Shown here piece after piece: positions 21,689 to 35,117 of a DNA stretch of 57,779 nt. The notes under the pieces were generated by a model, which saw only the letters and a list, made by a program, of their open reading frames with translations, was not told where the DNA came from and did no database searches. The stretch comes from a bacterium. GTDB lineage: Bacteria; Bacillota_I; Bacilli_A; RF39; UBA660. Every line of letters starts with the position of its first letter. The stretch's first letter is position 1. The position numbers and the translations under genes were made by a program. The stretch is from contig RKAV01000062.1 in assembly GCA_014846175.1 (NCBI GenBank), positions 1-57,779 on the forward strand. The letters run 5' to 3'.

Positions 21689-24028
21689 ATGAGTAAAAGA
21701 TATAATCCTGATAAGAATATTGGTCTTAGTAAGGAGCAAGTAAATGAAAGAATTAAAGACAATTTAGTTAACTTTAATACAAATGTAAAAACAAAAAGTG
21801 CTAAAGAAATTATCTTAGAAAATACTGTTACATTATTTAATATAATCAATGCTATTTTAGCAGTAGCAATTATTTTAGTAGGTAGCTATAAGAATCTTGG
21901 CTTTCTACTTATTATCGTTTTAAATACTGTTATTAGTACATTTCAAGAATTACATTCTAAAAGTGTTATTGATAAATTATCAGTAGTATCGGCATCAAAA
22001 GTTAAAGTATTAAGAGATAGTAAAGAATATGATGTTAATCTAGATGAAGTTGTTTTAGATGATATTATTTTACTTGAATTAGGTAACCAAGTAATTACAG
22101 ATGCTATTATAGTAGATGGAGTAGTGGAAGTTGATGAGTCATTTATAACGGGTGAAAGTGATACTTTAATAAAAAAAGAAGGCGATATGCTATTATCAGG
22201 TAGTTTTATTGTAAGTGGTAATGCTAAAGCTAAGGTAGAACACATTGGATATGATAACTATACTGCTAAAATATCAAGTGATACTAAGTATATAAAACCA
22301 ATATCATCTGAAATTATGCGTTCTCTTAATAAAATAGTTAAGACTATTTCAGTTATTATAGTTCCTCTTGGAATCTTGCTTTTTGCAAGACAGTTATATT
22401 TATCAGGTAATACTTTACAAAATGCTGTTGTTAACACAGTAGCAGCTATTATAGGAATGATACCAGAAGGATTAGTATTATTAACGTCAACTGTTTTTGC
22501 TGTTTCTGTTATTCGTCTTTCTAAAGAAAAAGTTTTAGTACAAGATTTATACTGCATTGAATCTCTTGCTAGAGTTGATGTGATTTGTCTTGATAAGACA
22601 GGTACTATCACAGAGGGTAAGATGGAAGTAGTAGATGTCATTCCATTAGAGGGAGAAACTAAAGCTTCATTAGGAGATATTTTAGGTAGTATGATGGCAG
22701 CTACAAAGGATAAAAATGCTACTGCTATTGCTATAAGAGATGCTTATTATCGTAAACCAAAATGGAAAGTAGAAGAAGTTATTCCTTTTTCATCCGAAAA
22801 GAAATATTCTGGTGTAAAGTTTGCTACTGATACTTATTTGATTGGAGCAGTAGAATTTGTTTTAAAAGACCATGGTAAGAGTTATCAAAAGATGTTAGAT
22901 GATTATATTAAAAAATACCGTGTTTTAGTTCTAGCCAAGGTTAATAATTACGGTAAAAAGAATGAGGAAAGACAAGCTTTAGGATTTATTTTATTACAAG
23001 ATAAAGTTAGAAAAGAAGCTAAAAAGACATTAGAGTACTTTAAAGAACAAGGTGTTGCTATTAAAATTATATCTGGAGATAATCCTATTACTGTTTCATC
23101 TATTGCTAAAAGAGCAGGACTTACTGAAAAACTTAAGGTGATAGATTTATCTACTTTAAATAGTGAAGAAGAGATACAAAAAGCAGCTTTGGAGTATGAT
23201 GTATTTGGAAGAGTAAAACCAGAAGAAAAGCACTTACTTATTAGAGCTTTAAAAGAAGCTGGTCACAATGTAGCGATGACAGGAGATGGTGTTAATGACT
23301 GTTTAGCTCTAAAAGAAGCAGACTGTTCTATTGCTATGGCTTCAGGAAGTGATGCTGCAAGAAGTGTATCCCAATTAGTTTTACTAGATTCTAATTTTGC
23401 TTCTATGCCTAGTGTAGTAGCAGAGGGGAGAAGAAGTATAAATAATCTTGAAAGATCTGCTTCTTTATTCTTAGTTAAAACAATTTATGCAGGAATACTT
23501 GCTTTCTTATTTCTATTTATAGAAATGTCTTATCCTTTTATACCGATTCAGTTGACACTTGCCAGTGTAGTAACTATTGGAATACCATCATTTGTCTTGG
23601 CACTTGAACCTAATAAAGAAAGAGTAAAAGGAAAATTCTTAGTGAATGTCTTAAAGAAATCAGCACCACCGGCCTTTACAATTATCCTAAATATTTTACT
23701 AATATGTCTAGCAGGGCAGATGTTTAGTCTTAGCTATGCTAAAATATCAACATTATGTTTAACCTTAACTGGTTATACATCATTTATTCTTTTATTTAAG
23801 ATATGTAGACCATTTAATAGAATAAGACTAATTTTATTTAGTACAATGTTTTATCTATTTATATATGCTATCTTTAATTTAACTACTTTATTTTCTATAA
23901 CACATTTTAATATCTTTATGATTTTTCTAGCATTTATCTTAATGTATTTATCACATAGATTATATACTTTCTTTGAAATGCTTATTGATAAACTTATGGT
24001 GAAATTAAGTAGTAAAAATATGATATAA
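21689..24028 (+). CDS. cation-translocating P-type ATPase (HAD superfamily, IC-like)
   Basis: TGES actuator motif, CLDKTGTITEG, MTGDGVNDCLALKEAD, 10-TM layout. Confidence 0.85.
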   Translation: MSKRYNPDKNIGLSKEQVNERIKDNLVNFNTNVKTKSAKEIILENTVTLFNIINAILAVAIILVGSYKNLGFLLIIVLNTVISTFQELHSKSVIDKLSVVSASKVKVLRDSKEYDVNLDEVVLDDIILLELGNQVITDAIIVDGVVEVDESFITGESDTLIKKEGDMLLSGSFIVSGNAKAKVEHIGYDNYTAKISSDTKYIKPISSEIMRSLNKIVKTISVIIVPLGILLFARQLYLSGNTLQNAVVNTVAAIIGMIPEGLVLLTSTVFAVSVIRLSKEKVLVQDLYCIESLARVDVICLDKTGTITEGKMEVVDVIPLEGETKASLGDILGSMMAATKDKNATAIAIRDAYYRKPKWKVEEVIPFSSEKKYSGVKFATDTYLIGAVEFVLKDHGKSYQKMLDDYIKKYRVLVLAKVNNYGKKNEERQALGFILLQDKVRKEAKKTLEYFKEQGVAIKIISGDNPITVSSIAKRAGLTEKLKVIDLSTLNSEEEIQKAALEYDVFGRVKPEEKHLLIRALKEAGHNVAMTGDGVNDCLALKEADCSIAMASGSDAARSVSQLVLLDSNFASMPSVVAEGRRSINNLERSASLFLVKTIYAGILAFLFLFIEMSYPFIPIQLTLASVVTIGIPSFVLALEPNKERVKGKFLVNVLKKSAPPAFTIILNILLICLAGQMFSLSYAKISTLCLTLTGYTSFILLFKICRPFNRIRLILFSTMFYLFIYAIFNLTTLFSITHFNIFMIFLAFILMYLSHRLYTFFEMLIDKLMVKLSSKNMI

Positions 24029-24034
24029 AAAAAA

Positions 24035-24070
24035 GTCATAGATATCAGTTTGATATTTATGATCTTTTTT
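24035..24070 (+). terminator. terminator after P-type ATPase
   Basis: TCATAGATATCA-gtt-TGATATTTATGA hairpin (one G-U pair) plus a T6 run. Confidence 0.65.
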
Positions 24071-24115
24071 AAGTATAAATAAAAATAAAAACCCCTAAGG
24101 GTTTAAAATTCTAAA

Positions 24116-24206
24116 TGGCGGAGACAGAGGGATTTGAACCCTCGCGACAGTTACCCATCCTACTCCCTTAGCAGGGGAGCCTCTTCAGCCTCTTGAGTAT
24201 GTCTCC
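24116..24206 (-). tRNA. tRNA-Ser (anticodon GCT)
   Basis: The reverse complement GGAGACATACTCAAGAGGCTGAAG...CTGCTAA...long variable arm...GGTTCAAATCCCTCTGTCTCCGCCA folds as a class II tRNA. Confidence 0.9.
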
Positions 24207-24226
24207 AAATTGCTTCCGTAGTTATA

Positions 24227-24255
24227 ATATTACCGTAAAATGAAAGTGATGTCAA
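24227..24255 (-). promoter_or_regulatory. sigma-A-type promoter for tRNA-Ser
   Basis: Minus strand reads GCAAAAGTGTTGACA-17 nt-TAATAT. The same GCAAAAGTGTTGACA string precedes the 10-tRNA cluster. Confidence 0.6.
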
Positions 24256-24631
24256 CACTTTTGCAAAGAAAAAGTGAAATTGAACTAATTAAATGTTACT
24301 ACTCAGCCATAATGTAAAAAAATGATACAAATCTAGTAAAATGAGTTATAATATATACAGCGAAATACAACTATCCTAAATAAATTAGTGTCTCGCTTTT
24401 TTAATTATTTTATGCTGATATAGAAGTACTGGATAACTATATTTTTATTATTGATGGATATATCTTTGATGAACTAGAAATCGTCCAAAGTTCAACAACT
24501 AATAAAGAAAGATGTCCAATTAGATAAAATAAAATGAGGGCAGCATTTGTTGCAATTCCAATAGTAATATATCAATAAATATAATAATTAAAAATATTAA
24601 TATATTTAGGAGGATTTCTAGGAGGATTTCT

Positions 24632-26590
24632 ATGATGCACGTTACAAAGGAATTAAAAGATTATATTGAACAACAAATATTACTAATATATGAAAAAAAT
24701 GATAATGGTCATGGTATTGAACATATTAAATATGTTATTAAAAGAAGTTTAGAATTTGCTAACCAATTTCCTCATATAAATCTTGACATGGTGTACACTA
24801 TTGCTTCTTTTCATGATGTAGCACACCATATAGATAAAGACAAACATGAAATATTATCTGCTAAATTATTTTATGAAAATGAAAAGATGAAAGATTTCTT
24901 TGATGATAAACAGAGAATAATTATTAAAGAAGCAATAGAAGATCATAGAGCATCATTAGAATATGAACCTAGAAGTGATTACGGTAAGATAATTTCATCG
25001 GCTGATAGAACAACTAATATTGAATCTATATTAAAGAGAACTCATTCTTATACTACTAAACATTACCGAGATTTAGATTTATGTCAAATGGTTGAGCGTT
25101 CTTATAATCATGTGCTTAAAAAGTATGGTGGTAATGGTTATGCTAAAAATTATTGCTATGATAAAGATTATGAACAATTTAAACAAGATGTTAAAAAAAT
25201 CTTAAAGAATAAATGGGAGTTTACAAAAAAATATTTGGATGTAAATGAAATTATGGATTTAAAAGAAAAAGCAAAATTATTTGCAATAAATGCCCATATG
25301 GGACAAATTAGAAAAAGTGAACCAGATAAACCTATGATAATACATCCTATTAGTGTAGGCATATTATTAGAAGAATATGGCTATGACGAACCAGTAGTAG
25401 CTGCAGGTTATTTACATGATGTCGTAGAAGATACTAAATATACCATTGAAGATATAAAAAGAGAATTTGGTAATGAAGTTGCAAACTTAGTTATGAGTGC
25501 ATCAGAGCCAGATAAATCATTATCTTGGGAAGAAAGAAAAACATATACTATTGAAGAAGCTAAAAAATTACCTTTAAGAAATAAGTTAGTTATTTGTGCA
25601 GATAAGATAAATAATTTAGAAGACTTAATGCTTAAATTTCAAAAAAGTGGAAAAAGAGATTTTTCAGCATTTAAGAGAGGTGAAGAACAACAGAAATGGT
25701 ATTATACAAATGTATATGAAAGTTTAATTTATGGCGAAGATGAAAATTTACCTATATTTAAAAGACTTAAAAATGTATTAGATATTGTATTTGCTGAAAA
25801 AGAAGATTTATATTTAAGAGATACTATTTTTGATGATAATAGAAACTACTATGAAGAGCTAAAAAAACTACATGCTCAAAAAGTGGAACTGCAAAAATTA
25901 AAGGCATTAAGTGTATTATCAAAACCATTTGTTATTGAATTTAGTGGTACACCTAGAACTGGTAAAACTACTACAATAAATAATTTATATGATTTCTTTA
26001 AAAAAGGTGGTTTTAATACTGCTGTAATTGAGGAATTTACTACATCTAGATATTATAAAGAAGTATTTAAACAAAAATATAAAGATGTAAGTTCCACTGA
26101 ATCGAATATGGCAATAATAAAAGAGGTTACGAGACAATTAGAAGAAGCACTTAATTCGGATAAAGAAATAATTTTAATTGATAGATCTATAAATGATAGA
26201 CAGATTTGGAATTATAGAAGATATATTCGCGGTGATATGCCAGAAGAACCATATCAAGAAGCAAGGGAGAAATATAGTGCAATATCAAGCAGATTAATAG
26301 ATTTTTTAGTTATTACATATGCCGAGCCTTTAACTTCACTAAAAAGAGATTATAATTCAAGTTTGGCATTAGAAAAAAGAAATTTTTTAAATATTGATAA
26401 TTTAAATGAATATAATCGGAGTTTAAAAGATTTACAAGAGTTATTTGAAACGAGTGTAGATGATTCAATTTTACTAGATACAAGTTCTATGGGTATGGAT
26501 AAGGTTTCTATAGAAATTGCATCACAAATAATGCCTGCTATGAGAAAAAGGTATATTAAAAATTTTAAACAAAAGTATAATTTAAAGTAA
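24632..26590 (+). CDS. three-domain protein: N-terminal HD phosphohydrolase, RelA/SpoT-type HD (alarmone hydrolase-like) and C-terminal P-loop (deoxy)nucleoside/nucleotide-kinase-like domain
   Basis: aa ~25-130 HGIEHI...SFHDVAHHIDK (HD). aa ~210-300 AHMGQIRKSEPDKPMIIHPISVGILL...AAGYLHDVVEDT (SpoT/Mesh1-type HD). aa ~435-560 FSGTPRTGKTT Walker A and ILIDRSINDRQIW (ERS-like motif of dNK/TMPK-fold kinases). Confidence 0.7.
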   Translation: MMHVTKELKDYIEQQILLIYEKNDNGHGIEHIKYVIKRSLEFANQFPHINLDMVYTIASFHDVAHHIDKDKHEILSAKLFYENEKMKDFFDDKQRIIIKEAIEDHRASLEYEPRSDYGKIISSADRTTNIESILKRTHSYTTKHYRDLDLCQMVERSYNHVLKKYGGNGYAKNYCYDKDYEQFKQDVKKILKNKWEFTKKYLDVNEIMDLKEKAKLFAINAHMGQIRKSEPDKPMIIHPISVGILLEEYGYDEPVVAAGYLHDVVEDTKYTIEDIKREFGNEVANLVMSASEPDKSLSWEERKTYTIEEAKKLPLRNKLVICADKINNLEDLMLKFQKSGKRDFSAFKRGEEQQKWYYTNVYESLIYGEDENLPIFKRLKNVLDIVFAEKEDLYLRDTIFDDNRNYYEELKKLHAQKVELQKLKALSVLSKPFVIEFSGTPRTGKTTTINNLYDFFKKGGFNTAVIEEFTTSRYYKEVFKQKYKDVSSTESNMAIIKEVTRQLEEALNSDKEIILIDRSINDRQIWNYRRYIRGDMPEEPYQEAREKYSAISSRLIDFLVITYAEPLTSLKRDYNSSLALEKRNFLNIDNLNEYNRSLKDLQELFETSVDDSILLDTSSMGMDKVSIEIASQIMPAMRKRYIKNFKQKYNLK

Positions 26591-26594
26591 AACA

Positions 26595-26621
26595 AAAGGA
26601 AGAGTAAAAACTCTTCCTTTT
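26595..26621. terminator. bidirectional hairpin terminator
   Basis: AAAGGAAGAG-taaaaa-CTCTTCCTTT with A/T runs on both sides. Confidence 0.65.
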
Positions 26622-27065
26622 GAAATACTTCTACCAAGTGTATAAATATACCCGCAACAATCAAAAATGCTTTAGTTATACTATTTTTAGTGATTAAGTC
26701 AATACTTTTTCGCGATTTTCTTTAGATTTGCTATGGGTGATTGCGTGTTTTTTTTATTTTCTATCTTCTATCTTACTTTTATTAGTTGTTTTTATTTTTT
26801 CAAAAGCATAATATTTTTGTGTGAAAAATGAGAAAAAACGATAGTAATTTGCATTAAAATAACCTCCTGTATTCAAAGAAGGCTATTTTATGCTGATTGA
26901 ATACGAAGAAATTACAAGAGGTTATTTTGTTGATTACTAGTAAAAATAAAGGCTGATAATAGAAGTTCATTTTCTGCTAACAATGCTAAAGAAAAAGTAA
27001 AAAAGACATTAGGCTTTCAAAAAAGATACATATCTTTTCTTTTTTGCGTAACATTGCTAAATGAA

Positions 27066-27097
27066 TTTAAAATAAAAAGCCTTAAAAATAAGGCTTT
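27066..27097 (-). terminator. terminator of the minus-strand tRNA trio
   Basis: AAAGCCTTA-aaaa-TAAGGCTTT hairpin followed on the minus strand by TTTTTATTTT. Confidence 0.6.
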
Positions 27098-27107
27098 GTA
27101 ATCATTA

Positions 27108-27184
27108 TGGTGACCAGTACGGAATTCGAATCCGTGAATGCTGCCGTGAAAGGGCAGTGTGTTAAGCCACTTCACCAACTGGCC
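27108..27184 (-). tRNA. tRNA-Glu (anticodon TTC)
   Basis: Reverse complement GGCCAGTTGGTGAAG...CCCTTTCACGG...GGATTCGAATTCCGTACTGGTCACCA. Confidence 0.9.
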
Positions 27185-27192
27185 AAAAAAAA

Positions 27193-27269
27193 TGGCGCCT
27201 CAACTAGGACTTGAACCTAGGACCCCTTGATTAACAGTCAAGTGCTCTAACCAACTGAGCTATTGAGGC
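27193..27269 (-). tRNA. tRNA-Asn (anticodon GTT)
   Basis: Reverse complement GCCTCAATAGCTCAGTTGGTTAGAGC...GACTGTTAATC...GGTTCAAGTCCTAGTTGAGGCGCCA. Confidence 0.9.
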
Positions 27270-27276
27270 ATCCTAA

Positions 27277-27353
27277 TGGTGGGCCTGACAGGACTTGAAC
27301 CTGTGACCTCTCGCTTATCAAGCGAGCGCTCTAACCAACTGAGCTACAAGCCC
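27277..27353 (-). tRNA. tRNA-Ile (anticodon GAT)
   Basis: Reverse complement GGGCTTGTAGCTCAGTTGGTTAGAGC...GCTTGATAAGC...GGTTCAAGTCCTGTCAGGCCCACCA. Confidence 0.9.
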
Positions 27354-27378
27354 GTTCCTTCAAAAACAGAACAATTTA

Positions 27379-27407
27379 ATATTACAATAAAATGTTTCAT
27401 AAATCAA
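27379..27407 (-). promoter_or_regulatory. candidate promoter for the Ile-Asn-Glu tRNA trio
   Basis: Minus strand reads TTGATT-17 nt-TAATAT about 25 nt upstream of tRNA-Ile. Confidence 0.45.
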
Positions 27408-27549
27408 GTCTTTTTTTTAAATTTTGTAATATATTTCCGACTTGCATACTTAGAATAGCAAAGATATGAATAAAAATCAAGCATTTTTTAAAAAATATTG
27501 TGATAAATTTCATCTTTTGTTATAATCTTCTAAGAAAAGAGGTGCTTTT

Positions 27550-28392
27550 ATGTATAAAAAAGTCGAAGAAGAAGGATTATTATTAGAAACAATATTAAAA
27601 TTATTTAACGAACAAAGTCATAAAAAATTAAAATCATACCTAAAAAATAATAGTATTTTTGTAAATGGTAAATCAATTACTGCTTATAACTACAAAGTAA
27701 AGAAAAATGATATTATTGAAATTAGAAAAGATTATAAGACTCATAAGAAGTGTCCTTTAAAGATACTTTATGAAGATGAATACTTTTTAGTAATAGAAAA
27801 ACCAGCACATTTATTAACAATAGCAACTACTAAAGAAAAAGAAAAAACAGCATATCACATTATGCGCCAATTTATTAAAGAAAGAAATAGTAAAGATAAA
27901 ATCTTTATCTTACATCGTCTAGATAAAGATACATCAGGAGTAGTAATATTTGTAAAAGATGAAAGAGTAAAAGAACTATTACAAAATGATTGGAATAACT
28001 TAATAGAAGATAGAGAATATATAGCAGTAGTACCTAAAGGAATAAAGTCATATACTAACTATACTTGTTATTTAAAAGAAGATAATAATTATAAAGTACA
28101 TGTTACTAATGATAAAAATGGTAAGAAAGCTATCACTTCTATCACCGTATTAAAAGAAAATAAGAATTATTCTTTAATTAAAATAAATATTAAGACAGGT
28201 AGAAAAAATCAAATAAGAGCAGTTCTATCACACTTAGGTTATCCAGTTGTAGGAGATACAAAATACGGTAGTGATATTAAAGCTAAAAGATTGTTATTAC
28301 ATGCTTCTAAGATAATTTTAACTAATCCAAAGAATAAGAAAAAATATACATTTGAGAGTAAATTACCAAGAGAATTTCAAAAATATGTATAA
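27550..28392 (+). CDS. RluA-family pseudouridine synthase with S4-like N-terminus
   Basis: HRLDKDTSGVV catalytic Asp motif and GRKNQIR motif. Confidence 0.85.
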   Translation: MYKKVEEEGLLLETILKLFNEQSHKKLKSYLKNNSIFVNGKSITAYNYKVKKNDIIEIRKDYKTHKKCPLKILYEDEYFLVIEKPAHLLTIATTKEKEKTAYHIMRQFIKERNSKDKIFILHRLDKDTSGVVIFVKDERVKELLQNDWNNLIEDREYIAVVPKGIKSYTNYTCYLKEDNNYKVHVTNDKNGKKAITSITVLKENKNYSLIKINIKTGRKNQIRAVLSHLGYPVVGDTKYGSDIKAKRLLLHASKIILTNPKNKKKYTFESKLPREFQKYV

Positions 28393-28434: not shown

Positions 28435-29208
28435 ATGGCAAAATATAAAGTGGAAATTAGTGGAGTAGATACTAGAAATTTAAAAGTATTAACTAATGAA
28501 GAGATGGTGGAGTTATTTAAAAATATCAAAACTAATCCTTTTGCTAGAAATGATTTAGTAGAAGGTAATTTAAAGCTAGTACTTAGTATTTTAAAACGAT
28601 TTAAAAATCATAATGAAAATTTAGATGATTTATTTCAAGTTGGATGTATTGGACTTGTTAAGTCTATTGATAATTTTGATTTAGGTCAGAATGTAAAATT
28701 TTCAACCTATGCTGTGCCAATGATTATTGGGGAGATTAGACGTTATTTAAGAGATAATAATAGTATAAGAGTAAGTCGTTCAACCAAAGACTTAGCATAT
28801 AAAGCCTTAAAATATAAAGAAGAATACATTTTAACTAATGGAAAAGAACCATCTTGTGAAGAGATAAGTAAGCAATTAGATTGTACTACTTATGATGTTT
28901 ATCATGCTTTAGAGTCATTAAAAGATCCTGTTTCTATGTTTGAACCAATTTATAGTGATGGAGGAGATACTATCTATTTATATGATCAAATAGAAGATAA
29001 GAAGCAAACTGGAAGTGAGATAGAAAATCGTCTTGCTACTAATGATGCTATAAATATGTTATCTGATAGATGTCAACAAATATTAGAAGAAAGATTTATT
29101 ATCGGTAAAACACAAATGGAAGTAGCAGAAGACTTATCTATTAGTCAAGCTCAAGTATCAAGACTTGAAAAAAATGCTGTTAAACAGTTAAAGAAAATAC
29201 TTAAATAG
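28435..29208 (+). CDS. sigG: sporulation sigma factor (SigG-like)
   Basis: KVEISGVDTRNLKVLTNEEM...DDLFQVGCIGLVKSIDNFDLGQNVKFSTYAVPMIIGEIRRYLRDNNSIRVSRS closely follows the Bacillus SigG sequence as I remember it. Region 4 HTH is QMEVAEDLSISQAQVSRLEK. Confidence 0.85.
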   Translation: MAKYKVEISGVDTRNLKVLTNEEMVELFKNIKTNPFARNDLVEGNLKLVLSILKRFKNHNENLDDLFQVGCIGLVKSIDNFDLGQNVKFSTYAVPMIIGEIRRYLRDNNSIRVSRSTKDLAYKALKYKEEYILTNGKEPSCEEISKQLDCTTYDVYHALESLKDPVSMFEPIYSDGGDTIYLYDQIEDKKQTGSEIENRLATNDAINMLSDRCQQILEERFIIGKTQMEVAEDLSISQAQVSRLEKNAVKQLKKILK

Positions 29209-29252
29209 AATAGTATTTCTTTTTTTTACATAAAAATAAATAGGTGATAATA

Positions 29253-29483
29253 GTGAGATTATCAGATTTGCAAAACAAAGATATAGTAAATACTATGGAT
29301 GGTAGAAATGTAGGTAATATAATTGATGTTAAAATAGATCAATTAACGGGTGCTATTGTTTCTTTAGTAGTAGAACCTAATAAGAAAATGTTATCTTTTA
29401 TGAATAGAGGAGTAGAAGAAGAAATATCTTGGAAGAATATTGAAAGGATAGGAGAAGATGTTATCCTAGTAAGATTAGAATGA
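29253..29483 (+). CDS. YlmC/YmxH-family sporulation protein (PRC-barrel)
   Basis: RLSDLQNKDIVNTMDGRNVGNIIDVKID...GAIVSLVV is the family pattern. The GTG at 29253 follows SD AGGTGA. Confidence 0.7.
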   Translation: MRLSDLQNKDIVNTMDGRNVGNIIDVKIDQLTGAIVSLVVEPNKKMLSFMNRGVEEEISWKNIERIGEDVILVRLE

Positions 29484-30214
29484 ATTCTAGAAGACTCCAT
29501 TTAAAGAAAAGTAAGAAATCTAATCCCATTTCTTTTTTATTAGGAACTATTTTCTTCTCATTTATATTAACGATAATTATTATCTTTAAAGCTGGTAAAT
29601 ATTTAGAAGAGTCAATAACTAGTTATGCTACTATTGAAACTAAAAGAGTAGCAACTACTATTTTAAATGATGTAATTAGAAATTATGATTTTACTAAAGA
29701 AGATTTATATAAAATAGTTAAGAATGATTCAAAAGAAGTAGAATTTATTGATTATAATTCTAAAGAAGTTAATGCTATTTTAAATAAAATAAATAAGAAT
29801 GTTACTGATAGATTACTTGAAATAGAAAGCGGAGATACTAAAAACATTTCCTTATCAGATGGGCTTAAAGGTAGGAAATATATCTATTTAAAAAATGGAG
29901 TTGTTTGTGATATACCAATAGGAAGCTTAACAGGTAACTCATTACTTATTAATACTACTATGACTATTCCTATTAGATTTTCTTTTGTAGGAAGTGTTAA
30001 AAGCAATTTAGAAGTAAAGGTAAACTCTTATGGCTTTAATAATGCTTTAGTAGAATTATTCATTATAGTAGAAATAACAGAACAAATAACTCTTCCTCAT
30101 ACCTCTAAAGAAATTAAGGTATCAGCAAATATACCACTTGTTACAGAACTTATTCAAGGAAAAGTACCACTATATTATCAAGGGGGACTAGAAAAAAACT
30201 CTAATATAAGCTAA
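29480..30214 (+). CDS. yunB: sporulation protein YunB-like
   Basis: N-terminal TM helix, then ...IPIGSLTGNSLL...IPIRFSFVGSV... pattern. ATGA overlap with the preceding gene and sigG neighbourhood. Confidence 0.65.
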   Translation: MNSRRLHLKKSKKSNPISFLLGTIFFSFILTIIIIFKAGKYLEESITSYATIETKRVATTILNDVIRNYDFTKEDLYKIVKNDSKEVEFIDYNSKEVNAILNKINKNVTDRLLEIESGDTKNISLSDGLKGRKYIYLKNGVVCDIPIGSLTGNSLLINTTMTIPIRFSFVGSVKSNLEVKVNSYGFNNALVELFIIVEITEQITLPHTSKEIKVSANIPLVTELIQGKVPLYYQGGLEKNSNIS

Positions 30215-34226: not shown

Positions 34227-34303
34227 GGGCGATTAGCTCAGTTGGTTAGAGCACCTGCCTTACAAGCAGGGGGTCATAGGTTCGAGTCCTATATCGCCCA
34301 CCA
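34227..34303 (+). tRNA. tRNA-Val (anticodon TAC)
   Basis: GGGCGATTAGCTCAGTTGG...CCTTACAAG...GGTTCGAGTCCTATATCGCCCACCA. Confidence 0.9.
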
Positions 34304-34310
34304 TTAAGAT

Positions 34311-34386
34311 GCCGAAATAGCTCAATAGGTAGAGCAACTGATTTGTAATCAGTAGGTTCCGGGTTCGATTCCTGGTTTCGGCACCA
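34311..34386 (+). tRNA. tRNA-Thr (anticodon TGT)
   Basis: GCCGAAATAGCTCAATAGG...GATTTGTAATC...GGTTCGATTCCTGGTTTCGGCACCA. Confidence 0.9.
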
Positions 34387-34403
34387 TTTTATTGTTTATA
34401 GTC

Positions 34404-34487
34404 GGAGAGGTAGCGAAGTGGCTAAACGCGACAGACTGTAAATCTGTTCCTTCGGGTTCGATGGTTCGAATCCATCTCTCTCCACCA
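34404..34487 (+). tRNA. tRNA-Tyr (anticodon GTA)
   Basis: GGAGAGGTAGCGAAGTGG...GACTGTAAATC..., long variable arm, ...GGTTCGAATCCATCTCTCTCCACCA. Confidence 0.9.
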
Positions 34488-34497
34488 TCTTAGTTAT

Positions 34498-34572
34498 TGC
34501 CTCGTAGCCAAGTGGTAAGGCATCAGACTTTGACTCTGACATGCGTTAGTTCGAATCTAACCGAGGCAACCA
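34498..34572 (+). tRNA. tRNA-Gln (anticodon TTG)
   Basis: TGCCTCGTAGCCAAGTGG...GACTTTGACTC...GTTCGAATCTAACCGAGGCAACCA. Confidence 0.9.
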
Positions 34573-34586
34573 TTTTTTAAATATTT

Positions 34587-34662
34587 GATCCGCTAGCTCA
34601 GTCGGTAGAGCATTTGACTTTTAATCAAAGGGTCATGAGTTCGAATCTCATGCGGGTCACCA
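34587..34662 (+). tRNA. tRNA-Lys (anticodon TTT)
   Basis: GATCCGCTAGCTCAGTCGG...GACTTTTAATC...GTTCGAATCTCATGCGGGTCACCA. Confidence 0.9.
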
Positions 34663-34668
34663 TGATGT

Positions 34669-34757
34669 GCCTGAGTGGCGGAATTGGTAGACGCACAGGA
34701 CTTAAAATCCTGCGAAGGTCATACTTCGTGCCGGTTCAAGTCCGGCCTTAGGCACCA
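34669..34757 (+). tRNA. tRNA-Leu (anticodon TAA)
   Basis: GCCTGAGTGGCGGAATTGG...GGACTTAAAATCC..., long variable arm, ...GGTTCAAGTCCGGCCTTAGGCACCA. Confidence 0.9.
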
Positions 34758-34764
34758 TTTATTT

Positions 34765-34857
34765 GGAGGAATACCCAAGTCTGGTTGAAGGGACCGGTCT
34801 TGAAAACCGGGAGGTCGTGCAAACGGCGCAGGGGTTCGAATCCCTTTTCCTCCGCCA
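34765..34857 (+). tRNA. tRNA-Ser (anticodon TGA)
   Basis: GGAGGAATACCCAAGTCTGG...GGTCTTGAAAACC..., long variable arm, ...GGTTCGAATCCCTTTTCCTCCGCCA. Confidence 0.9.
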
Positions 34858-34878
34858 CTTAAATTTATATATTGATAT

Positions 34879-34954
34879 CGCGGGATGGAGCAGTTGGTAG
34901 CTCGTTGGGCTCATAACCCAGAGGCCGGAGGTTCGAGTCCTCCTCCCGCAACCA
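34879..34954 (+). tRNA. initiator tRNA-fMet (anticodon CAT)
   Basis: CGCGGGATGGAGCAG...GGGCTCATAACCC...GGTTCGAGTCCTCCTCCCGCAACCA. The C1-A72 mismatch and three G-C pairs closing the anticodon stem mark an initiator. Confidence 0.85.
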
Positions 34955-34958
34955 TAAT

Positions 34959-35035
34959 GGTTCCGTGGTGCAGCTGGTTAACACGTCTGCCTGTCACGCA
35001 GAAGATCGCGGGTTCGAGCCCCGTCGGAACCGCCA
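34959..35035 (+). tRNA. tRNA-Asp (anticodon GTC)
   Basis: GGTTCCGTGGTGCAGCTGG...GCCTGTCACGC...GGTTCGAGCCCCGTCGGAACCGCCA. Confidence 0.9.
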
Positions 35036-35041
35036 TTATTT

Positions 35042-35117
35042 GGTTTCATAGCTCAGTCGGTAGAGCAAAGGACTGAAAATCCTTGTGTCGGTGGTTCGAT
35101 TCCACCTGGAACCACCA
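35042..35117 (+). tRNA. tRNA-Phe (anticodon GAA)
   Basis: GGTTTCATAGCTCAGTCGG...GGACTGAAAATCC...GGTTCGATTCCACCTGGAACCACCA. Confidence 0.9.

Follow-up and report, generated by a model that had tools for sequence, protein, structure and literature searches.

Introduction

Small alarmone hydrolases (SAHs) are currently viewed as stand-alone proteins that serve as antitoxins or else as 'orphan' regulators with promiscuous activity. Those that have been characterized often accept (p)ppApp and NADPH as well (PMC10434055; PMC9765508). Their fold can take the 2'-phosphate off NADPH, and orphan SAHs with housekeeping, promiscuous roles, such as XccSAH, are on record (PMC9765508). Here we describe a gene coding for a 652-residue protein in which an SAH domain is fused to an N-terminal HD phosphohydrolase domain and to a C-terminal P-loop kinase-like domain. 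The gene is found on contig RKAV01000062.1 (GenBank assembly GCA_014846175.1) of a bacterium of the UBA660 lineage (RF39, Bacilli_A), and the whole stretch of 57,779 nucleotides that we analysed is called the window hereafter.

A full-text literature search retrieved no report of an SAH-kinase fusion, and a published survey of RelA/SpoT homologues (RSHs) does not mention this architecture. A preliminary description of the locus, made from the sequence, had called the three-domain fusion unusual, which agrees with the lack of literature on it. The protein is real, conserved and unannotated; its domains are familiar, and there is no sign yet of new chemistry. In our judgement, the balance tips modestly towards the gene coding for a multifunctional enzyme of nucleotide turnover, chromosomally encoded and maintained by vertical descent in an uncultured, AT-rich lineage of gut Bacilli.

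Domain composition of the protein

The gene is a single ORF, as first proposed and in agreement with the ORF list, and all the motifs that had drawn attention to it were found in the protein. These are HGIEHI (residues 27-32) and FHDVAHH (60-66), HMGQIRKSEPDKPMIIHPISV (222-242) and YLHDVVEDT (260-268), and GTPRTGKTT (439-447) and IDRS (516-519). The preliminary description had read them as a generic HD phosphohydrolase, a SpoT-type hydrolase devoid of a synthetase domain and a P-loop domain resembling deoxynucleoside kinases (dNKs) and thymidylate kinases (TMPKs). The profile and fold analyses below bear out all of these assignments. The domain boundaries are given in Table 1.

The middle domain matches Pfam HD_4 at residues 217-332 (1.6e-16; 60.8 bits for a cut-off of 27.2). 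Residues 210-377 match the Listeria SAH Lmo0812 (4yf1; E 1.6e-36) with 40-43% identity, and the domain also matches the Leptospira SAH, Drosophila and human Mesh1 and the hydrolase domains of Rel enzymes. Foldseek searches of the PDB yielded target-normalized TM-scores of 0.75-0.91 for Lmo0812, Corynebacterium glutamicum RelH, the Leptospira SAH and Mesh1, with values of 0.85-0.91 for 4yf1 and of 0.81-0.85 for RelH and the Leptospira SAH. All the hydrolase motifs are kept (R227-K228, H238, H262-D263, E266-D267, D324 and N328) and align with those of Lmo0812, the Leptospira SAH and Mesh1. The loss of SpoT catalytic residues, which had been named as a possible objection to this assignment, was not observed, every catalytic motif being present and invariant. 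No RelA_SpoT match was found with Pfam or NCBIfam in the 652-residue protein outside of the hydrolase region, and the window does not contain the motif E-x-Q-x-R-[TS], used here as a signature of RSH synthetases. The NCBIfam spoT_relA model (TIGR00691) aligned at model positions 4-99 only, with 78.8 bits for a cut-off of 499. Since this match is confined to the first 99 positions of the model, the protein has no synthetase, TGS or ACT domain. Lastly, R227-K228-S229 sits where guanine-accepting Rel enzymes carry an R-R/K-S motif, a position at which the ppApp-specific Aph1 has D-K-A (PMC10083569).

The C-terminal domain passes the threshold of Pfam AAA_28 alone (residues 436-546, 8.3e-8; 33.1 for a threshold of 27). 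The Pfam models for dNK (PF01712) and Thymidylate_kin (PF02223) were not reported for the window protein; among its homologues, P0032 has a recorded match to PF01712. Foldseek searches of the PDB with the C-terminus returned Giardia deoxyadenosine kinase (dAK), yeast and human TMPK, deoxycytidine kinase (dCK), Dm-dNK and AbmG. The Foldseek probability was 1.0 for dAK, dCK, dNK and TMPK, and the target-normalized TM-scores of the kinase matches were 0.55-0.73, with a sequence identity of merely 14-20%. The profile of the C-terminal family matches Giardia dNK (2e-6) and Mycoplasma deoxyguanosine kinase (1e-4), the Glu and DRS motifs being in register. E468 thus aligns with the E-P-V segment that follows strand 2 of Giardia dNK, the Glu of which we take to be catalytic, and D517-R518-S519 aligns with the Giardia DRS. 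The Walker A motif GxxxxGK[ST] is present and invariant (G439-TPRTG-K445-T446). The remaining motif residues of the domain, besides R442 in the P-loop, are R572, E581 and R583. The P-loop Arg in GTPRTGKTT corresponds to the type I TMPK pattern, as in the yeast TMPK sequence GLDRTGKTT.

In the structural model, the C-terminus has a P-loop core of five strands into which helices are inserted, and helix 566-575 together with the next loop can be read as the LID. The preliminary description had allowed for the C-terminus not having a kinase fold; its Foldseek matches and five-strand topology are kinase-like. Profiles of the domain also match the GTPases of the signal recognition particle (SRP), FtsY and SRP54, around the P-loop, but we rejected an SRP-GTPase identity because of the kinase-like fold ranking and the five-strand topology. 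The helix of the linker that precedes the kinase domain is also found, in the alignment, in front of stand-alone homologues of that domain.

The N-terminal domain matches Pfam HD at residues 29-129 (1.4e-14, above the gathering score). Its family profile matches the PDB entries 2pq7 (5e-9), Escherichia coli YedJ (3gw7, 3e-8) and Bacillus subtilis YpgQ (5dqv, 2e-3), and the domain also matches phrog_3921 (1e-24). The H...HD...D metal motif is present, with H31, H61-D62 and D125 aligned with the YpgQ metal ligands H29, H58-D59 and D124. The invariant residues of the domain are H27, H31, H61-D62, H72, H105 and D125. Judging from these comparisons, the N-terminal domain is only a distant, profile-level relative of YedJ and YpgQ.

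We also found the N-terminal HD domain fused to other partners, namely NUDIX (P0152, P0186), nucleoside 2-deoxyribosyltransferase (P0195) and methyltransferase (P0209) domains, and in some proteins to a second copy of itself. In the 595-residue, NadR-like protein P0159, a weak CTP_transf_like/nicotinamide mononucleotide adenylyltransferase (NMNAT) match and an AAA_28 domain are followed by a C-terminal HD domain that is 49% identical to residues 7-207 of the window protein. This set of partners is typical of nucleotide salvage and house-cleaning.

Conservation and distribution of the family

The AlphaFold2 model of the whole protein, built with 30 homologues, is confident throughout, with a mean predicted local distance difference test score (pLDDT) of 91.9 and a predicted TM-score (pTM) of 0.84. 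Such a high pTM is consistent with a fixed arrangement of the domains in the model. No catalytic residue of the three domains varies in the alignment of the 30 homologues, which share 60-100% identity. More than 120 database clusters contain homologues in the same range of identity, mostly full-length proteins of ~650 residues. The few named homologues belong to metagenome-assembled genomes (MAGs) called 'Bacilli bacterium' and to Candidatus (Allo)scybalousia.

With one genome scanned per species, relatives were found in at least 573 genomes, and the architectures were counted in the 80 loci listed. These are essentially all from MAGs of uncultured gut Bacilli, plus Clostridium sp. CAG:524; some of the MAG loci are labelled Clostridia, Mycoplasma, Tenericutes or Muribaculaceae. 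Domain-wise tblastn searches showed the N-terminal HD domain to be fused, as in the window, in 42 of the 80 loci. It is missing from another 36, where the ORF begins at the equivalent of Met208, and a mere fragment of it lies directly upstream in the last two. In one of the 36 two-domain loci, the HD domain is encoded by a separate gene 3.4 kb upstream. Among representatives at 50% identity collected in an exhaustive search, the three-domain form falls into one cluster and the two-domain hydrolase-kinase form into many, down to ~32% identity; each of the three domains also occurs alone. The hydrolase-kinase pair forms the conserved core, to which the N-terminal HD domain is an optional addition. 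The preliminary description had considered that the protein might turn out to be a widespread, already characterized housekeeping enzyme: it is widespread within its lineage but uncharacterized.

In seven related loci (L014, L033, L034, L035, L036, L039 and L049), two ORFs take the place of the single three-domain gene, with the same split into 85 and 569 residues in L034 and L035. These may be assembly frameshifts in AT-rich DNA, or real pseudogenization of the N-terminal HD domain.

We scored the catalytic positions in 23 distant two-domain representatives. Those with at least 44% identity keep both active sites, as does the window's own clade. Further away, several proteins have kept the hydrolase motifs and lost the P-loop (for example P0153, P0160, P0164, P0168, P0184 and P0238), two have kept the P-loop and lost hydrolase residues (P0143 and P0234), and a few have lost both active sites. 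The set with reciprocal motif decay also includes P0133, P0169, P0221 and P0266. The kinase-like domain retains its length and fold in the relatives devoid of a P-loop. That the domains stay joined even when one of them is catalytically dead suggests that they interact, structurally or in regulation. This pattern is reminiscent of the subfunctionalization and pseudo-domains of RelA/SpoT.

Gene organization and genomic context

Table 1. Features of the hydrolase-kinase locus (window coordinates)
Feature	Position	Strand	Details
tRNA-Ser(gct)	24116-24206	-	ARAGORN
DUF6414 gene remnant	24405..24575	+	blastx; DNA comparison with L005, L009 and L080; context, outside the enzyme
Shine-Dalgarno region	24608..24631	+	12-bp unit aggaggatttct twice in tandem, abutting the ATG; sequence
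652-residue HD/small alarmone hydrolase/kinase-like gene	24632..26590	+	intact ORF, ATG start, stop codon included
N-terminal HD phosphohydrolase domain, YedJ/YpgQ type	24632..25246	+	residues 1-205
SAH domain, RelA/SpoT hydrolase fold	25253..25816	+	residues 208-395
Helical linker	25817..25921	+	residues 396-430, long helix 404-426; model secondary structure
C-terminal P-loop kinase-like domain, dNK/TMPK fold	25922..26587	+	residues 431-652
Hairpin just 3' of the stop codon	26593..26622	.	G+C-containing, A/T runs on both sides
tRNA-Glu/Asn/Ile	27108-27353	-	ARAGORN

The gene is monocistronic, with its own ribosome-binding site and its own terminator. The Shine-Dalgarno sequence was graded strong; its 12-bp unit is perfectly duplicated in the window and present in one copy in the closest relatives (loci L005, L009 and L080). 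From its sequence, the hairpin that follows the stop codon is probably a bidirectional intrinsic terminator. The gene had been described as standing alone between tRNA genes in non-coding DNA. The gaps on either side measure 425 bp and 517 bp, as expected from this description, but the upstream gap is not empty, as it holds the remnant of a DUF6414 gene. In this remnant, positions 24405-24506 correspond to residues 5-38 of a 268-residue protein and positions 24534-24575 to its final 14 residues, ~640 bp having been deleted inside the gene as judged by DNA comparison with L005, L009 and L080. The intact relative belongs to Pfam PF19952 (1.5e-37).

In L005, L009, L080 and L020, an intact 268-residue DUF6414 gene is located ~50 bp upstream of the hydrolase-kinase gene, with no obvious promoter seen between them, and the arrangement suggests that the two genes may be co-transcribed in these loci. 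A conserved block, CTAGAATAAT..ATATAGTATAATTTTATTAG, with a TATAAT box after ATAG, was observed ~70 bp upstream of the gene in L006-L011, L036 and L039. As the neighbouring genes differ and the block stays with the gene, this suggests that the gene carries its own promoter there. The block is missing in the window's sub-clade, where the DUF6414 gene comes before the hydrolase-kinase gene. An Rfam scan at the gathering threshold and an E-value scan of positions 23900-27600 returned tRNAs and chance-level matches only, ruling out a riboswitch or another cis-acting RNA of that database in the flanks. Between the terminator of the gene and that of the tRNA-Ile/Asn/Glu operon lie ~440 bp (26630-27075) with no ORF of at least 60 residues, no Rfam match and no likeness to the neighbour proteins of related loci.

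The preliminary description had regarded the context as that of an accessory gene or an island remnant. Our analyses do not support this view. The G+C content is ~26% in gene and flanks alike, so that horizontal transfer is not indicated by composition, and the neighbouring genes in the window are ordinary chromosomal ones, coding for two P-type ATPases, a Sir2 family protein, an RluA-type pseudouridine synthase, a sigma factor and YunB. The relatives found in hundreds of species-level genomes have variable neighbours, the gene neighbourhoods differing even between relatives with 89% identity. A scan of viral contigs revealed no relative of the window protein, and Foldseek searches of BFVD identified single-domain analogues only (HD hydrolases of jumbo phages and viral dNK/dTMP kinases). 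PADLOC gave no match for the window protein or for DUF6414. With these results, we rejected a defence or phage origin.

For a partner gene, we clustered all the neighbours of 85 related loci. No gene recurs in more than 12 of these loci, and we thus rejected a conserved partner. The most frequent neighbours are a gene of the uracil-DNA glycosylase (UDG) superfamily, in 12 of the 85 loci, and one for an SLFN/AlbA-type regulator, in 10; neither is found in the window. The UDG-superfamily gene (PF03167, E 7e-7) is directly upstream and on the same strand in L001, L002, L018, L019, L021, L022, L024, L034, L042, L053 and L083. The synthetase signature E-x-Q-x-R-[TS] is absent from 1.03 Mb of sequence representing 88 related loci and the window, and no toxic small alarmone synthetase (toxSAS) was found in the neighbourhoods of the relatives' genes.

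Elsewhere in the window, genes for a sporulation-type sigma factor (Sigma70 r2/r3/r4) and for a YunB-family protein (28435-30214) suggest a spore-forming lineage, despite the 26% G+C and the reduced-looking genome. An array of ten tRNA genes is present at 34227-35117.

Proposed function and alternative explanations

We propose that the protein is most likely a housekeeping 'orphan' SAH rather than an antitoxin, in keeping with the nucleotide-turnover role that we favour. This proposal builds on what was observed: the domain identities, the intact motifs, the lineage-wide conservation, the monocistronic organization and the lack of a synthetase partner nearby. By analogy with its characterized relatives, the middle domain would be an active SAH of the RelH/Lmo0812 (MixSpo) type, catalysing the Mn2+-dependent removal of the 3'-pyrophosphate from (pp)pGpp. 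It would probably also act on (p)ppApp, and it may act on 2'/3'-phosphorylated cofactors such as NADPH. The hydrolase would be permanently coupled through the long helix to the P-loop kinase. As the kinase keeps every catalytic motif in the window's clade, it most likely uses ATP to phosphorylate a (deoxy)nucleoside or a nucleoside monophosphate. The N-terminal YedJ/YpgQ-type HD domain, as an optional third module, would most likely hydrolyse (d)NTPs or (d)NMPs. The combined action of the domains would be to remove alarmones and to restore the balance of the purine and deoxynucleotide pool. We infer all of these substrates, and any coupling between the activities, by analogy with known enzymes.

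Several observations weigh against this proposal. The kinase passes the generic AAA_28 threshold only. The N-terminal HD domain reaches 22 bits with the NCBIfam equivalog model for YedJ (PRK10119), for which the cut-off is 286, and it is therefore not a member of that family. YedJ itself has no known function to our knowledge. The sole characterized relative of the domain is YpgQ, a Mn-dependent (d)NTP pyrophosphohydrolase (PMC8177086). In addition, the decay of the P-loop in distant relatives that have kept the domain indicates that the C-terminal domain may be mainly regulatory or structural. Finally, the family members come from uncultured organisms, and every substrate is deduced from sequence comparisons.

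A first alternative is that the kinase-like domain mainly senses nucleotides allosterically or mediates oligomerization, which would make the protein in effect a regulated SAH carrying an additional, accessory HD domain. We consider this unlikely, even though many distant members without a P-loop keep the length and fold of the domain and SAHs are known to be regulated by way of their dimer architecture, as outlined in PMC9293644. The P-loop G, K and T residues, the P-loop Arg, E468, DRS and the LID residues R572 and R583 are all invariant in 30 sequences with identities as low as 60%, an indication that catalysis has been kept. The reciprocal decay among the 23 distant two-domain representatives, which recalls the subfunctionalization of RelA/SpoT, is also consistent with an analogue of Rel with opposed activities, in which the kinase would make a 2'/3'-phosphorylated nucleotide messenger for the fused SAH to degrade, the two sites being mutually regulated as in Rel/SpoT. 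The order of the domains is that of long RSHs, with the hydrolase first and the 'making' domain second; a helix joins them, the pTM is consistent with a fixed arrangement, and the SAH fold does remove the 2'-phosphate from NADPH (PMC9765508). Nevertheless, kinases of the dNK/TMPK fold act on a 5'-OH or a 5'-phosphate, not on a 2'- or 3'-OH, and no 3'-OH kinase such as CoaE or APS kinase came near the top of the matches, APS kinase appearing as a P-loop-local match only. We regard this possibility as quite improbable. The same holds for its broader form, a Rel-like bifunctional switch assembled from other parts, in which the kinase would make a phosphorylated nucleotide signal or RNA end and the SAH would erase it, with reciprocal regulation and one site inactivated in sister lineages.

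The substrates may also be sought in cofactor metabolism, with the SAH as an NADPH 2'-phosphatase like Mesh1 and XccSAH and the kinase of the nicotinamide-riboside type (AAA_28/NadR-RNK), for NAD(P) salvage or homeostasis. AAA_28, which we take to include the nicotinamide-riboside kinase (RNK) domain of NadR, is the sole kinase family above threshold, and P0159 joins a close relative of the N-terminal HD domain to a NadR-like NMNAT and AAA_28 protein. The NADPH phosphatase activity of SAHs is also documented (PMC9765508). However, an hhalign comparison of the C-terminal family with the RNK-like domain of P0159 aligned the P-loop only (probability 1.8%), on which ground we rejected a NadR-RNK identity, and NadR is missing from the best 60 PDB sequence matches and from the top 50 fold matches, with dNK and TMPK matching better. 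These results make a NAD(P)-related role very unlikely. Slightly less credit still can be given to the antitoxin or counter-defence role put forward in the preliminary description, whereby an immunity enzyme on an island remnant would neutralize the product of a toxSAS, another toxic nucleotide, or tRNA 3'-pyrophosphorylation. SAHs are known as antitoxins and immunity proteins (PMC7229694, PMC10083569), the gene sits between tRNA genes, a DUF6414 gene precedes it in the closest relatives and is decayed in the window, and genes of the Fic and SLFN/AlbA types are nearby in one relative. Against it stand the lack of the synthetase motif in the 88 loci and the window, of a recurrent partner among the 85 loci, of PADLOC matches and of relatives on viral contigs, together with the native composition and the wide distribution of the family.

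The P-loop domain might instead phosphorylate 5'-OH ends of RNA, the HD and SAH domains cleaning 2',3'-cyclic, 3'-phosphate or 3'-pyrophosphate ends, in an end-healing pathway for tRNA or other RNA like that of HD-Pnk. SAHs can reverse the pyrophosphorylation of the tRNA CCA end. This modification is performed by toxSAS enzymes, at least as summarized in preprints. Runella HD-Pnk likewise has its HD phosphoesterase at the N-terminus and its P-loop kinase at the C-terminus, as outlined in PMC6097658, which cites Munir and Shuman 2017, and weak KTI12 matches were obtained. Yet there is no AAA_33/Pnk match in Pfam, the top 50 Foldseek PDB matches of the C-terminus comprise nucleoside and nucleotide kinases but not a single polynucleotide kinase, and no ligase, Hen1 or Tpt1 was detected in the Pfam-annotated neighbourhoods or among the annotated recurrent neighbour clusters. 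Of all the explanations considered, this one appears the most far-fetched.

Significance

The family hard-wires an SAH to a domain of the nucleoside/nucleotide-kinase fold, often together with a second HD hydrolase, in hundreds of uncultured species of gut Bacilli. If the activities are coupled, alarmone clearance would be tied directly to nucleotide re-phosphorylation or salvage in reduced-genome gut bacteria, and the proteins would represent a new architecture of the RSH superfamily. The reciprocal decay can also serve as a natural experiment on how pseudo-enzymes take part in regulation, as a counterpart to the RelA/SpoT case. If the domains merely work side by side, our analysis provides a useful annotation and no more. 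The significance of the family would rise sharply if the product of the kinase proved to be a substrate of the fused hydrolase.

Comparison with known systems

The SAHs of toxSAS-SAH pairs have an adjacent toxic synthetase and a mobile, prophage or defence-island setting, neither of which was found for the window gene. With orphan SAHs, such as Xanthomonas XccSAH and metazoan Mesh1, the window protein shares the lack of a cognate toxic synthetase nearby and a plausible role in nucleotide or cofactor homeostasis. It differs from them in that they are single-domain proteins of the Mesh1/Mesh1-L subfamily with measured activities, whereas the window protein is known from its sequence and model.

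Among the described relatives of the separate domains, YedJ (3GW7), 2PQ7 and YpgQ (5DQV) share the H...HD...D metal motif and profile-level similarity with the N-terminal domain, which differs by additional invariant His residues (H72 and H105) and by being fused rather than stand-alone. The dNKs and type I TMPKs (Giardia dAK 8PUU, human dCK, Dm-dNK and yeast and human TMPK) have in common with the C-terminal domain the P-loop core and an acidic residue after strand 2, and the DRS motif of the window protein corresponds to the ERS motif of dNKs and to the DRY motif of TMPKs. Unlike them, the domain of the window protein is below their Pfam thresholds, carries an additional helix at its N-terminal end and is part of a fusion with hydrolases. 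Runella HD-Pnk resembles the window protein in having an HD phosphoesterase N-terminal to a P-loop kinase in one polypeptide, according to the outline in PMC6097658. In the window protein, the kinase is dNK/TMPK-like rather than Pnk, an SAH lies between the HD and kinase domains, and the annotated neighbourhoods include no ligase.

The closest resemblance of the middle domain is to the SAHs of the MixSpo/RelH type (Lmo0812 4YF1, C. glutamicum RelH 7QOD and Leptospira SAH 7QOE), which have the same fold and motifs and no synthetase domain. These known enzymes stand alone, with ~180-200 residues, whereas the SAH of the window is placed between an additional HD domain and a kinase-fold domain. 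With its 652 residues and two further domains, the protein departs from the small, single-domain format of SAHs. As for long RSHs (Rel/SpoT), their likeness to the window protein is an RSH hydrolase domain followed by a second nucleotide-phosphotransfer domain on the same chain, with one site decayed in distant relatives. They differ in their TGS/ACT domains, absent from the window protein, and in the nature of the second domain, which is a nucleotidyltransferase-fold pyrophosphokinase in long RSHs and a P-loop kinase in the family described here.

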